Source of the DNA: Paraspadella gotoi
Taxonomy: Eukaryota > Animalia > Chaetognatha
Assembly (NCBI GenBank): GCA_051294375.1
Contig: CM119263.1
Coordinates: 30,999,830-31,063,829, forward strand
DNA: 64,000 bases
Direction of reading: 5' to 3'
The notes under the pieces: generated by a model
Told to the model about the DNA's origin: nothing
What the model saw: the letters and a program-made list of their open reading frames with translations, nothing else
The model's database searches: none
In this document: one piece after another, positions 19,024 to 62,162 of the stretch
Position numbering within the stretch: the stretch's first letter is position 1
How the letters are laid out: the number at the start of each line of letters is the position of its first letter
Translations under genes and position numbers: made by a program

Positions 19024-20090
19024 CTAGAAAGTCTTTTTGACTCTTTGCGGCAAAATGCTGCTCTCCGCGTATTTGAAGAAAGACAAGAGTCCGTACTTTT
19101 TCGATTTACGTTTGAAGTAATTGCTCACCAAATCCCCGTCGTCCTGGCGAATCACGTGACCTAAACCGAGTATTGTTGAGAATTTAACAAGGAACGGATT
19201 AAAATGTGACAGGGAAATATTGAAACATTCAATATAACTTATAAATCATAAGAATAACCTGTTACGGTTGGCAATGTATTTTCGTTAGCGGAGAGAGAAA
19301 TAAAGTAAGCGAATGGTACGAGCCACAAGCAGATTGTAAAATAGCCGAGAACTTCGCTGAAGGGATGCCACTCCTAAGATTGGAAATGGGGCAATAGATG
19401 GAATTCGACAAATTATACTTTTTTAAATAATAATATAGTAGACAATAAGATCACCGTAGAAAAGTAGGAAAAGGCGAAGTAATGATTGACGAAGATGAAT
19501 ACGAGGGAGGCGACGAAGGAGGGAGATGAGAGTTCGATTTCCGGGAAATTGGGAAGCAGCGCCGCGTAGAGGAGAGTCGAGAAAAGGCCTTAAAAAGAAA
19601 AAAACAAAAGGGTAAATGAGGCTGTGTTTAAGGATTTTAGCTTTATAATCTCATTTCATCGACTAAAAATAGTAAACAAATATAAAAATAATAATATAAA
19701 GAAATATAAAGTTCGAAATTCTTTTCAATTCTTAGCAACTCAAACCTAAATAATATTTCCCGCCGATAAAAAAAAAAGAATATCTACCATCACTCATCCC
19801 CCACGAGGCCTAATAAAAACATTGGTTACAATAGCATAAAATTATATTAAGTACAAAAGATAATAATTCTGACCCGTGAGCGTCATCTTAAGCGGGAGCG
19901 ACTCGAAGATGAGGAGACACACGTCAACGAGAGCGACGACGACTATGAGGCTTTTGACGACGCGTTTGGTCGTCACCACGTACTCCTCCACCAGCTCAGC
20001 CAAGTAGTAGAGTCCAGCAGCGATGCACAATGTCAACAACGTCACTTGGATCACCATGGCAACCCAGCTCATGAGCCAGAGGAACCACAT
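19024..20090 (-). CDS. TEX261: Protein TEX261 (Svp26-like COPII cargo adaptor), 4 exons
   Basis: MWFLWLMSW...[46 protein letters not shown]...[11 protein letters not shown]. Exons 20090-19874, 19588-19455, 19373-19259 and 19160-19024. Confidence 0.95.
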
Positions 20091-59354: not shown

Positions 59355-62162
59355 ATGGCTAACAATTATGTTGTGACGGCTCACAAACCGACGGCGGTGA
59401 ACGCCTGTGCTACAGGTTAAAATATCCGATCGATGCATTCGTAGTATTAAGTATTAATTAATAATTATAAATGATTTCATCTTTAATCCGGTTTTGCAGG
59501 CAACTTCACCGCCTCGGACGATCTCAATCTTCTCATCGCCAAAAATACACGATTGGAGATTTACAGCGTGACTCCCGAAGGACTGAGGCCTTTGAAGGAA
59601 ATCAGCATTTATGGACGGATCGCGGTGCTGCAGCTTTTTCGGCCACCAGGTTCGTTCTTCTCTTTGTTCTTTTCTCTTTTTTTCTTTGTTTTTTTCTCTC
59701 GTTTCTTTTTTTCTTTTTATCTTTGTTTGCTTCTACTGGGATTCTTCTCACTCCTCAGGCGAGAACAAGGACCTCCTCTTCCTCCTCACCGCCCGATACA
59801 ACGCGATGATCCTCGAGTGCGTCTCCACCGTCGCCGACGCCGCTGCTGACGCCGGACTGGAGATCATCACTCGCGCCCACGGAAACGTACAGGATCGAAT
59901 CGGGCGCCCGGCGGAGACGGGCATCATCGGGATAGTGGATCCTTCGTGTCGGGTCATCGGACTCCGGTTGTACAATGGACTGTTTAAAGTGAGGAGTGTT
60001 GGTAGAGATTAAATGTTTTATAAAAAAAATTATATTTAATCTTAAATTGTTATTTTCCATTGAGGTGATTCCCTTGGATCGAGAGAATCGTGAACTGAAA
60101 GCCTTCAATGTCCGAATGGAGGAACTCAACATCATCGACATTTCCTTCTTGTATCCAAACTCCTCTTCCTCATCCTCCTCCGTCGCGTCGTCGTCGTCGG
60201 CGTCACCGCCTGGCACCACCGTCGCCGCATCAGCCGCCGCCGAAGCAGCCGATCCCCCAACCCTCATTCTCGTTCACCAAGATCAGCACGGGAGACACGT
60301 GAAGACTTACGAGATCGCCCTGCGTGAAAAAGAGCTCAACAAGGGACCTTGGAAACAGGTATTGCCTTTCGTTTAGACCGCGCCGTCTCATATTATTGTG
60401 ACTCTATGTGACGCTCGGTCTGTCCGTCTCTCTCAACAGGACAACGTGGAAACGGAGGCGACGATGGTGATCCCAGTTCCGTCACCGCTAGGCGGCGCCC
60501 TCATAATCGGCCAAGAGTCCATCACCTATCATCGCGGCGACACCTTTCTCGCCATCGCTCCGCCTTCCATCAAAGCCGCCGTGCTGGAGAGCCACGCCCG
60601 CATCGACGCCTTCCGCTATTTGCTCGGAGACATGGCGGGGAGGCTCTTCATGCTGTTGCTGGAGAAGGAGGAAAAGATGGACGGAGAGATCGGCGTCAGG
60701 GATCTCAAGGTTAAAATTAGGAGATGTTGAGCAATGTGGATTTGATTGGAGAGACTTTTGCCATGATTTTACAATATAGTGTACACTAGGGTGAAGTGAA
60801 AGTTTGGAAACAAAATTTAGCAAATGTTTTTTTTTAAATTCTGAGAACAGATTCAGATTCCTTGTTAAAAGTTGATAAAAGAAAATATAAATCTTTTTCA
60901 AAAATTATGTCATTAAGTAGGTTAAAATTATAAAAAACTATATTTTTAATATTGAAATTGAAAATCGGTATTTTAAATACATTTTTTTTAATTTTTAACC
61001 AACTTAATGAAAGAATTTTTAAAAAAGAATTATACTTTCTTATATTAACTTTTTGCAAGGAATCCAAATCCGATTTTAAAATTTAAAAATTTGCATTTTG
61101 AAATTTTAGCTTATAATATACTTATTACCATATATAAATATAGCTCACTGGTAGCCACTAATGTATAAAATTAAAAAATAAATTTACCTTGGGTAACCGC
61201 GCCAGTGACTGGAGGTGTCACTGAGGGTCATCACAGGCTATCTTCATTTCTCATCCAGGTTGAGCTTTTGGGCGAAATCTCTATCCCCGAGTGTCTCACT
61301 TATTTGGACAATGGAGTCGTTTACGTTGGATCTCGTTTGGGAGATTCGCAATTGGCCAAGTTGAACGTTGAGGCGGATCCAGACACCGGAAGCAACGTCC
61401 AGGTTATGGAGACCTTCACCAATTTGGGGCCGATCGTCGATATGTGCGTCGTCGATTTGGAGCGACAGGGTCAGGGTCAACTTGTCACCTGCAGCGGTAA
61501 TGTTTTTTTTTTTTTTTTTGTTGAGAAATCCTTTTTGTCAATTCTTATTTCTTTTTCTTCCTTTCATATTCTCCAGGTTGTTACAAAGAAGGGTCCCTTC
61601 GCATCATTCGCAACGGAATCGGAATCCACGAGAACGCCACCATCGACCTTTCTGGCATTAAAGGCGTCTGGCCTCTGCGGGTCGGAGCAATCGATGCCAC
61701 CGGGGATTCCGCTCCCAAGGTTGGGTGGGTTCTGGGGAGATTTGATGACCCCTTTTTTTTCCAACGGGAACTCTTGTCGATGGAAACCATTTTTCCTCAG
61801 GACGACACTCTGGTTTTGTCATTCGTTGGTCAAACGAGAATTCTCGCTCTGACGGGAGACGAAGTGGAAGAGATGGAACTGGATGGAATCGACGGAGACC
61901 AACAGAGTTTCTTCGTTGGAAACGTCGCCAATACAAATCAGGCAAGGAGTTAATAGGAGGCAAATTAGGGATGATGGTTGGGAGGAATGGAGATTCATTT
62001 TCTCTCTCTCTCTCTCAGATCGTGCAAATCACGGCCTCAGGCATTCGATTGGTCAAGTGTCGCGTCGAAGGCCAAAGCGAATCGAAGGCGGGACTGGCGG
62101 CTGAATGGAAACCTGGCGGCGGAAACAAGAACATCTCCGTCGCCACTTTTCACGGATCGCAG
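59355..62162 (+). CDS. DDB1: DNA damage-binding protein 1, 5' half only (to about residue 520 of the human protein)
   Basis: [96 protein letters not shown]. The last exon seen ends cag|gtagtg. Confidence 0.96.
60835..61100. mobile_element. Second copy of the palindromic MITE-like family, in a DDB1 intron
   Basis: aaaagttgataaaagaaaatataaatc...attaagtaggttaaaatta matches 37816-37900, and the inverted arm is present. Confidence 0.7.

Follow-up and report, generated by a model that had tools for sequence, protein, structure and literature searches.

The window analysed here, 64,000 nt of DNA from the chaetognath Paraspadella gotoi, carries two rows of housekeeping genes that appear to run away from a shared middle at 32.1-32.4 kb; probably at least some neighbours in these rows are transcribed together and would then be separated by spliced-leader trans-splicing. 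COQ2-RBM42-hyccin is likely the best-supported unit, followed by MATH-BTB-DOP1, while TEX261, AGPAT and DDB1 may either be members of such units or be transcribed singly, each from a separate promoter, and trans-spliced. Trans-splicing and operons in chaetognaths have been on record since 2008 (PMC2481426), and genome-wide since 2025 (PMC12460157). Operon use is thus already known for the phylum, so its occurrence in this region would be no surprise.

Two divergent rows of genes

Open reading frames were rebuilt exon by exon for eight genes; DOP1 is represented by its first exon and the position of its stop. The resulting nine models form two divergent rows, four genes on the minus strand (from left to right, TEX261, hyccin, RBM42 and COQ2) followed by five on the plus strand (OXA1L, MATH-BTB, DOP1, AGPAT and DDB1), all of them intact save DDB1, which is incomplete at its 3' side. 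Order and strands are those that an earlier note on this DNA had given. The features are as follows.

19024..20090, minus: TEX261 (Erv26 family), 4 exons, 200 aa, last of the left row (Pfam; gene model)
22985..27555, minus: hyccin/FAM126, 9 exons, 686 aa (Pfam; gene model; one intron joint in RNA)
27714..27743, minus: top acceptor of the RBM42-hyccin gap, AG at 27715-27714 (rank 1 of 22 AGs; RBM42 contig end at 27715)
28091..29904, minus: RBM42, 5 exons, 364 aa (four of four introns seen as RNA joints)
29928..29957, minus: top acceptor of the COQ2-RBM42 gap, AG at 29929-29928 (rank 1 of 8 AGs; RBM42 ATG 23 nt downstream)
30100..31839, minus: COQ2 (UbiA family), 3 exons, 448 aa, first of the left row (Pfam; both introns in RNA; gene model)
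32088..32418, no strand: candidate bidirectional promoter region, between the COQ2 contig end (32087) and the OXA1L contig end (32419)
32419..33231, plus: outron-like OXA1L leader, ending in an unpaired acceptor at 33231 (RNA contig; sequence)
33391..35479, plus: OXA1L, 4 exons, 496 aa, first of the right row (Pfam; gene model)
35868..38779, plus: MATH-BTB, 6 exons, 398 aa (five RNA joints; gene model; MATH_2)
38780..39703, plus: MATH-BTB/DOP1 gap, 924 bp, best acceptor at 39277 (unspliced through a 7123-nt contig)
39704..54159, plus: DOP1 (Dopey), many exons (Dopey_N on exon 1; stop from sequence)
55483..58379, plus: AGPAT3/4-like acyltransferase, 8 exons, 412 aa (gene model; N-terminus common to relatives)
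59325..59354, plus: predicted leader-joining acceptor, its AG abutting the DDB1 ATG (rank 1 of 34 AGs; LFK-M start of relatives)
59355..62162, plus: DDB1, first 9 exons, 557 aa (gene model; Pfam; homologs)

Pfam matched 11 of 15 exon pieces (families Erv26, Hyccin, UbiA, 60KD_IMP, MATH_2, Dopey_N and DDB1 propeller), with the acyltransferase match falling below the cut-off, and RRM_1 was matched in a separate search; RBM42, AGPAT3/4 and DDB1 were also identified from named relatives. In the single exon submitted, Pfam gave no BTB domain, and the BTB half of the MATH-BTB name is that of the earlier note. The RBM42 start is conserved among relatives, and hyccin begins with the same MK as its relatives P0329 and P0330; the representative search for hyccin gave 5 matches, 2 of them true relatives, and is informative for the start codon only. 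The identity and strand proposed for DDB1 as ninth gene hold, but its 3' part is cut off, the first 557 of about 1200 residues being followed by a 100-N assembly gap. A probable tenth gene, without a Pfam match, lies on the plus strand to the left of TEX261.

The seven same-strand junctions have stop-to-ATG gaps of 2894, 535, 195, 388, 924, 1323 and 975 bp. Earlier values of 195 bp (COQ2-RBM42, between coding ends), 535 bp and 388 bp proved exact, and the gap before TEX261, put at 2-3 kb, measures 2894 bp. A different picture emerged for the interval preceding DOP1, described as a 2-kb gap with a YY1 motif. An RNA contig is spliced from 37524 to 38620 (GT..AG), so that the coding sequence of MATH-BTB finishes in an exon at 38620-38779. 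The motif letters (38693-38701) are codons K-M-A within this exon, so that the gap shrinks to 924 bp and a YY1 promoter at 38.7 kb is rejected; the same letters recur where translation of RBM42 and of DOP1 begins.

As the earlier note had calculated, the probability that 8 adjacencies contain at most one strand switch is 9/256 (0.035). The figure is correct, but the block was picked post hoc, and counting the probable tenth gene gives 2 switches in 9 adjacencies (P = 0.09). The operon rule used in PMC12460157, which asks for neighbours on one strand at a distance under 250 bp, covers COQ2-RBM42 with its 195 bp between coding ends. At RBM42-hyccin, where the coding ends are 535 bp apart, the distance drops below 250 bp only if taken from the RBM42 contig end at 27715, which lies 159 bp from the hyccin ATG. 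By coding ends alone, the five remaining gaps fall outside the rule.

RNA contigs at the junctions

The RNA evidence consists of contigs of one run, taken as RNA; the intron joints support this, since 12 of the 15 listed joints (73 in all) are GT-AG introns of these genes. Two further sequencing runs aligned on repeats only. A contig does not prove true RNA ends, nor does a contig over two genes prove a single transcript. The two right-most junctions, before AGPAT and DDB1, lie outside the contig set and were read from sequence alone. The candidate promoter region at 32088..32418 is bounded by contig ends, which cannot mark a start. On its right, the OXA1L leader is unspliced in RNA, with 12 upstream ATGs and no GTRAG donor.

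At the COQ2-RBM42 junction, 8 AGs are available, and the COQ2 contig aligns through the G (29928) of the top-ranked one, with 7 further letters beyond. A stop on one of two AGs had been predicted beforehand and was borne out, at 29928 instead of the computed 29921. The RBM42 contig, in turn, aligns up to the A (27715) of the top AG of 22 in the gap before hyccin. For contigs stopping at random, the probability that both stops fall on the top AG is about 9e-5, and on any AG 0.014, the RBM42 case having been noticed post hoc. The acceptor at 27714 ranks first of 22 under both backgrounds, although its score is modest, at the 20th-28th percentile when set against 40 intron acceptors, and three upstream ATGs separate it from the hyccin start. 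The downstream contigs begin further inside: that of hyccin at 27496, 218 nt beyond the acceptor and not at the predicted 27713, and that of RBM42 at 29826, 102 nt beyond and not at the predicted 29927 or 29920. Contig coverage is interrupted at 27497-27714 and 29827-29927, holes that carry no weight for or against trans-splicing. Position 29826 falls within the conserved coding start of RBM42, and the 6 unaligned first letters of this contig stand at a site scoring -7.7 as an acceptor (very poor). The OXA1L contig has its computed end at 35566, where there is no acceptor. Neither the leader nor the poly(A) predicted for the contig loose ends was found in those inspected (18 of 517 and 6 of 8).

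Further along the right row, a 7123-nt contig passes from spliced MATH-BTB exons through the unspliced 924-bp gap into DOP1; in the left row, the TEX261 contig extends from exon 1 without splicing through another 1060 bases on its upstream side, as far as 21150.

We considered whether most of these genes could be monocistronic and trans-spliced, each starting from a separate promoter and having a short outron, so that only the closest pair or two would be operons. Nearly half of P. gotoi genes are trans-spliced and only 18% are in operons, the longest of nine genes (PMC12460157), which favours such an arrangement, as do the limitation of the 250-bp rule to COQ2-RBM42 when coding ends are used and the four gaps of 0.9-2.9 kb (2894, 1323, 975 and 924 bp), which are wide enough for promoters. 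However, at both closely examined junctions the upstream contig reaches the downstream acceptor and therefore leaves no room for a promoter, and unspliced RNA extends from MATH-BTB into DOP1 and over the 1060 bases upstream of TEX261. We thus regard mostly monocistronic expression as improbable, while noting that for the wide gaps it overlaps with the preferred reading of partial co-transcription.

The earlier note had also reported junctions in which a poly(A) hexamer is closely followed by an acceptor. AATAAA or ATTAAA occurs within 150 nt upstream of the top-scoring AG in 3 of the 7 gaps, compared to 133 of 331 for all AGs of those gaps; there is no enrichment, and a coupling of hexamer and acceptor is rejected, the frequency being at the background level (40%). 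The OXA1L-MATH-BTB gap has no such hexamer, and none occurs within 40 nt upstream of the contig stop at either of the two junctions with a stop on the AG. The nearest ones there are an ATTAAA at 58 nt from the RBM42 acceptor and an AATAAA at 123 nt from that of hyccin, both upstream. Judged by sequence against an intergenic background, the sense strand holds the higher-scoring AG in no more than 4 of the 7 gaps when the best site of each strand is compared.

These hexamers bear on a second alternative, operons of the SL2/Oikopleura type, in which a cut at the hexamer is followed by a short spacer and the acceptor. Their distances of 123 and 58 nt are near the approximately 100-nt spacers that PMC1488885 gives for Caenorhabditis. 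Yet hexamers at such a distance are as frequent before any AG as before top acceptors, both upstream contigs run beyond the point where a cut would be expected and stop on the AG, and chaetognaths showed no leader specific to operons (PMC12460157), all of which makes junctions of this type very improbable. The nematode-like junction envisaged earlier (poly(A) signal, spacer, acceptor) is therefore not supported; the contigs reach the acceptor AG itself. Such upstream ends hint at spacer-free junctions of the Ciona type.

The start of DDB1

DDB1 of the window is 82-83% identical to three transcript-derived proteins and 63-67% identical to the remaining 12 sequences compared, of which 10 belong to named animals. 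In a tree of 15 of the 120 DDB1 proteins fetched, none of them labelled as chaetognath, the window protein and its three close relatives form a clade (100/100) that excludes the molluscs, nemertean, centipede and deuterostomes in the sample. At the protein level, L-F-K precedes the conserved M in two of the three full-length close relatives, which are two related records. The same start occurs in 2 of the 120 proteins, both inside the clade. As listed in Table 3 of PMC2481426, 25 of 26 chaetognath leader variants end in TTGTTTAAA, which translates in frame as L-F-K; an end of this type is found in none of five leaders from four other animals (Table 1, PMC7986045). With the base composition of the window, the chance of TTG-TTY-AAR at the DDB1 start is about 7e-5; a chaetognath reading had been put forward before these starts were examined. 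No TTG-TTY-AAR is present upstream of DDB1 within 58380-59355 (the 975-bp gap), and the frame there reads ...PVQ-M, so this stretch offers no source of LFK. In place of the leader-like LFK, an unpaired acceptor AG abuts the ATG. From the two relatives we infer that DDB1 mRNA would carry the chaetognath leader.

LFK starts, which only an in-frame leader would show, were absent from the relatives of RBM42 (0 of 120 hits, 0 of 18 members) and of AGPAT (0 of 43 and 0 of 26). AGPAT has a strong acceptor at 55458, 24 nt 5' of its ATG. Backing by relatives for an alternative leader site at 29827 was ruled out, as P0125 and P0246 start at an internal M without LFK. In metagenomes, P0001 matched 7 loci of 40-77% identity, near relatives not among them; protein cluster look-ups gave no further DDB1 members, and Rfam had no match in the window.

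Altogether, the LFK-M starts of the relatives and the published operons of the phylum lend indirect support to the trans-splicing and polycistronic transcription proposed in the earlier note. An ordinary compact cluster, with one bidirectional promoter, read-through RNA, chance co-orientation and no trans-splicing, would agree with the strand statistic once the tenth gene is counted, with antisense acceptor-like sites about as strong in 3 of the 7 gaps and with the lack of leader letters in the contig loose ends inspected (18 of 517 plus 6 of 8, all of them away from gene starts), but is scarcely credible given these LFK-M starts, the acceptor abutting the DDB1 ATG and the stop of both closely examined upstream contigs on the top AG.

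Comparison with known operons

Carried to its full extent, co-transcription would make of all nine genes two polycistronic units, one of about 13 kb and the other of 30 kb or more, served by one 330-bp bidirectional promoter and resolved in the Ciona way; that is, trans-splicing itself would sever the preceding mRNA at the acceptor AG and poly(A) would be added without a hexamer. We offer this extension tentatively and think it rather doubtful. Were it true, spacer-free operons would have arisen independently, and the 250-bp rule would miss many members. Should upstream mRNAs indeed terminate at the acceptor AG of the next gene, with no hexamer, the same spacer-free design would have been reached by arrow worms and by sea squirts, and a second phylum would be at hand to study how such ends are formed, by debranching and tailing of the released piece or by a separate cut.

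The rows resemble the SL2 operons of C. elegans and those of Oikopleura in their head-to-tail, unrelated housekeeping genes and in their probable resolution by a leader. They differ in that those operons have spacers (about 100 nt in C. elegans and 23-30 nt in Oikopleura; PMC1488885), whereas the hexamer-spacer pattern is at background here, and in that C. elegans has a dedicated SL2 leader. With the chaetognath operons of PMC2481426 and PMC12460157 they share same-strand housekeeping genes and, judged by contig ends, a very short distance from 3' end to acceptor. In Spadella cephaloptera this distance is 3 bases in the RP S14-PCNA operon (PMC2481426), the only case that a literature search for spacer-free junctions in chaetognaths brought up. 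The leader with the TTGTTTAAA end is published for chaetognath operons and is predicted here through the relatives of DDB1. Unlike the gene pairs defined by the rule of PMC12460157, several of the gaps here exceed 250 bp between coding ends; the nine genes do not appear in three supplements of that paper, which do not include its gene table.

Operons of Ciona intestinalis lack intercistronic DNA, as do, similarly, minor SL1-type operons of C. elegans; in Ciona, the poly(A) tail starts on the G of the acceptor AG or slightly upstream of it, with no AATAAA within 40 nt (PMC1488885). The arrow worm differs in phylum and leader; its upstream RNA contigs stop on the acceptor AG, which hints at ends of this kind, and, as in Ciona, the 40 nt before the stop are free of hexamers.

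Gene rows and their surroundings

Gene models, Pfam matches and relatives bear out the order and strand of the nine genes proposed in the earlier note: COQ2, RBM42, hyccin and TEX261 in a left row on the minus strand, and OXA1L, MATH-BTB, DOP1, AGPAT and DDB1 in a right row on the plus strand. Pfam matches (11 of 15 exon pieces) identify TEX261 (Erv26), hyccin, COQ2 (UbiA), OXA1L, the MATH domain, DOP1 and DDB1; the RRM of RBM42 was matched as well. Named relatives back the assignments of DDB1, RBM42 and AGPAT3/4, as does, for RBM42, a comparison of one relative with the solved protein. 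Exon models whose introns are canonical and whose frames stay open could be assembled for COQ2, RBM42, OXA1L, MATH-BTB, AGPAT, TEX261 and hyccin; the frame rebuilt for DDB1 includes one GC donor (GC-AG intron at 61942) and breaks off in the window after 557 of about 1200 residues. Stop-to-ATG gaps in the seven same-strand pairs are 2894 bp (TEX261-hyccin), 535 bp (hyccin-RBM42), 195 bp (RBM42-COQ2), 388 bp (OXA1L-MATH-BTB), 924 bp (MATH-BTB-DOP1), 1323 bp (DOP1-AGPAT) and 975 bp (AGPAT-DDB1).

The probability of 9/256 attached to the single strand switch is correct on recomputing; it is a post hoc figure, and becomes 0.09 if one includes a further probable gene on the plus strand, whose end lies near 18.3 kb. 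This large multi-exon gene (about 5400-18400) converges on TEX261 and has long, repeat-rich introns; no Pfam family was found for it, and gene density there is far below that of the nine-gene block. The hyccin last exon encodes a His/Arg/Asp-rich repeat. A possible 27-nt in-frame hyccin micro-exon (24790-24816, minus strand; AG 24817, GT 24788/24792) is omitted by a contig of X1, the RNA run (joint 23876-25030).

Flanking, repeat and intronic features
10532-11013, 17188-17440 and 17745-18294, plus strand: Pro/Ser-rich exons of the probable left-flank gene
15300-16270: tandem array of about 50-nt units
22778-23002: at least seven tandem repeats of 25 nt, directly after the hyccin stop codon
34200-34440 and 26471-27137: two other short intronic elements, which X1 contigs cover at very high depth
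37777-38025, 60836-61144 and 57507-57546: family of MITE-like palindromes whose inverted arms measure 48 nt, in introns of MATH-BTB, DDB1 and AGPAT
62162-64000, beyond the DDB1 exons: CpG-rich stretch, 100-N gap (62803-62902) and minus-strand integrase fragment (Pfam rve) with a 119-N gap; likely a scaffold join or a retrotransposon in an intron

Acceptors and RNA contigs in the gaps

Acceptors were scored with a weight matrix built on 40 intron acceptors of the window. By this measure a plausible AG is present in every gap; since the antisense strand outscores the sense strand in three of the seven, acceptor-like sequence is weak evidence by itself. The poly(A) hexamers said to precede acceptors at the junctions are at background: AATAAA or ATTAAA lies within 150 nt of 3 of the 7 top-scoring AGs, versus 133 of the 331 AGs in the same gaps.

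The RNA evidence comes from X1 alone, as contigs only, with 0.63 of sampled words present; 12 of the 15 splice joints listed are introns of these genes. One contig joins 37524 to 38620 over a GT..AG intron. This adds a last coding exon to MATH-BTB, whose frame stays open until a stop codon at 38779. The supposed YY1 motif before DOP1 lies within this exon; the same letters recur around the start codons of RBM42 and DOP1. A 7123-nt contig in which MATH-BTB exons are spliced together continues through the 924-bp gap without a splice and into DOP1. Between the rows, a COQ2 contig reaches 32087 and an OXA1L contig 32419, leaving 331 bp. The latter includes 972 unspliced bases upstream of the ATG, of which the first 813 contain 12 ATGs and end at an unpaired acceptor, behaving as an outron (RNA upstream of a trans-splice acceptor) would. 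The TEX261 contig extends 1060 bases upstream of its ATG.

A narrow contig alignment over the COQ2-RBM42-hyccin junctions gave 9 records, whose ends need not be true RNA ends. The COQ2 contig aligns as far as the G at 29928, which belongs to the best-ranked of the 8 AGs in the gap, and then has 7 further letters; the RBM42 contig ends on the A at 27715, part of the best-ranked of 22 AGs. If contigs stopped at random, the joint chance would be about 9e-5 for a stop within 2 nt of the top AG and 0.014 for a stop at any AG; the RBM42 stop was observed before any prediction, and the COQ2 stop alone was predicted, loosely. Downstream contigs do not start at the predicted acceptors: that of hyccin starts at 27496 and that of RBM42 at 29826. 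The latter opens with 6 letters that do not align, at an AG-ATG inside the gene that is a poor acceptor (score -7.7), and reflects either an alternative leader site or an assembly artefact. A start there would remove the conserved first 26 residues (29827-29904); two RBM42 relatives, P0125 and P0246, are likewise called from the internal M at this site. Leader sequence was absent among the loose ends listed (18 of 517 in the wide X1 alignment, 6 of 8 in the narrow one). Another RBM42 relative, P0252, lies on a 6836-nt Logan contig, versus 1.4-1.9 kb for its kin, which may be a multi-gene transcript contig of a related species.

DDB1 relatives and the leader

Environmental relatives with 82-93% identity on the query exon exist for DDB1, RBM42 and AGPAT alike; named animals reach at most 72% (DDB1) and 73% (AGPAT). 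In a DDB1 tree (16 rows, first 560 residues; 15 of 120 fetched proteins used), the window's DDB1 groups at 100/100 with three transcript-derived proteins, apart from the molluscs, nemertean, centipede and deuterostomes that were sampled. Two of these three relatives start L-F-K-M-A-N-N-Y, as do no others among the 120 fetched DDB1 proteins. A gene caller starting at TTG on an mRNA reading TTG TTY AAR ATG would explain this start. Table 3 of PMC2481426 shows the TTGTTTAAA end in 25 of 26 chaetognath leader variants; none of the five leaders given in Table 1 of PMC7986045, from C. elegans, Ciona, Hydra and Schistosoma, ends in TTGTTTAAA. In the window, the DDB1 ATG immediately follows the best-scoring AG of its gap, and TTG-TTY-AAR codons were not found upstream of it. 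On the simplest reading, drawn from the relatives' protein ends, these would be chaetognath mRNAs in which trans-splicing joins the leader directly to the DDB1 ATG, and the window's animal would be their kin. No LFK start occurs among the RBM42 or AGPAT relatives, as expected, because it is visible only with an in-frame leader.

Probable operon resolution and comparison with published systems

We consider it quite probable that these are leader-resolved operons in a chaetognath. Transcription likely sets out both ways from around 32.1-32.4 kb; the leader would be joined at unpaired acceptors, removing the outrons of the first genes and releasing downstream cistrons. The acceptor AG is likely where the upstream RNA ends at the two tight junctions. 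A spacer-free, two-unit reading of both rows is doubtful, and no statement of a genome-wide spacer-free rule for chaetognaths was found in the literature searched. The layout and the 195-, 535- and 388-bp gaps in the earlier note stand, without its hexamer junctions and YY1 motif; its operon interpretation was right in kind, the nematode/Oikopleura type of poly(A)-signal/acceptor junction being likely wrong.

Operons are already known for chaetognaths. Statements in PMC12460157 give 10,197 trans-spliced genes for P. gotoi, 2,151 candidate and 1,470 validated operons, the longest of nine genes, and no operon-specific leader; the operons proposed here may already stand in its gene table. For Spadella, a passage of PMC2481426 places the poly(A) site three bases from the next acceptor. 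A likeness to Ciona is possible: the upstream contigs stop on the acceptor AG, and in Ciona, as described in PMC1488885, 16 of 18 operons have no AATAAA within 40 nt and poly(A) is added at the G of the acceptor AG, some ends lying 2-6 nt earlier.
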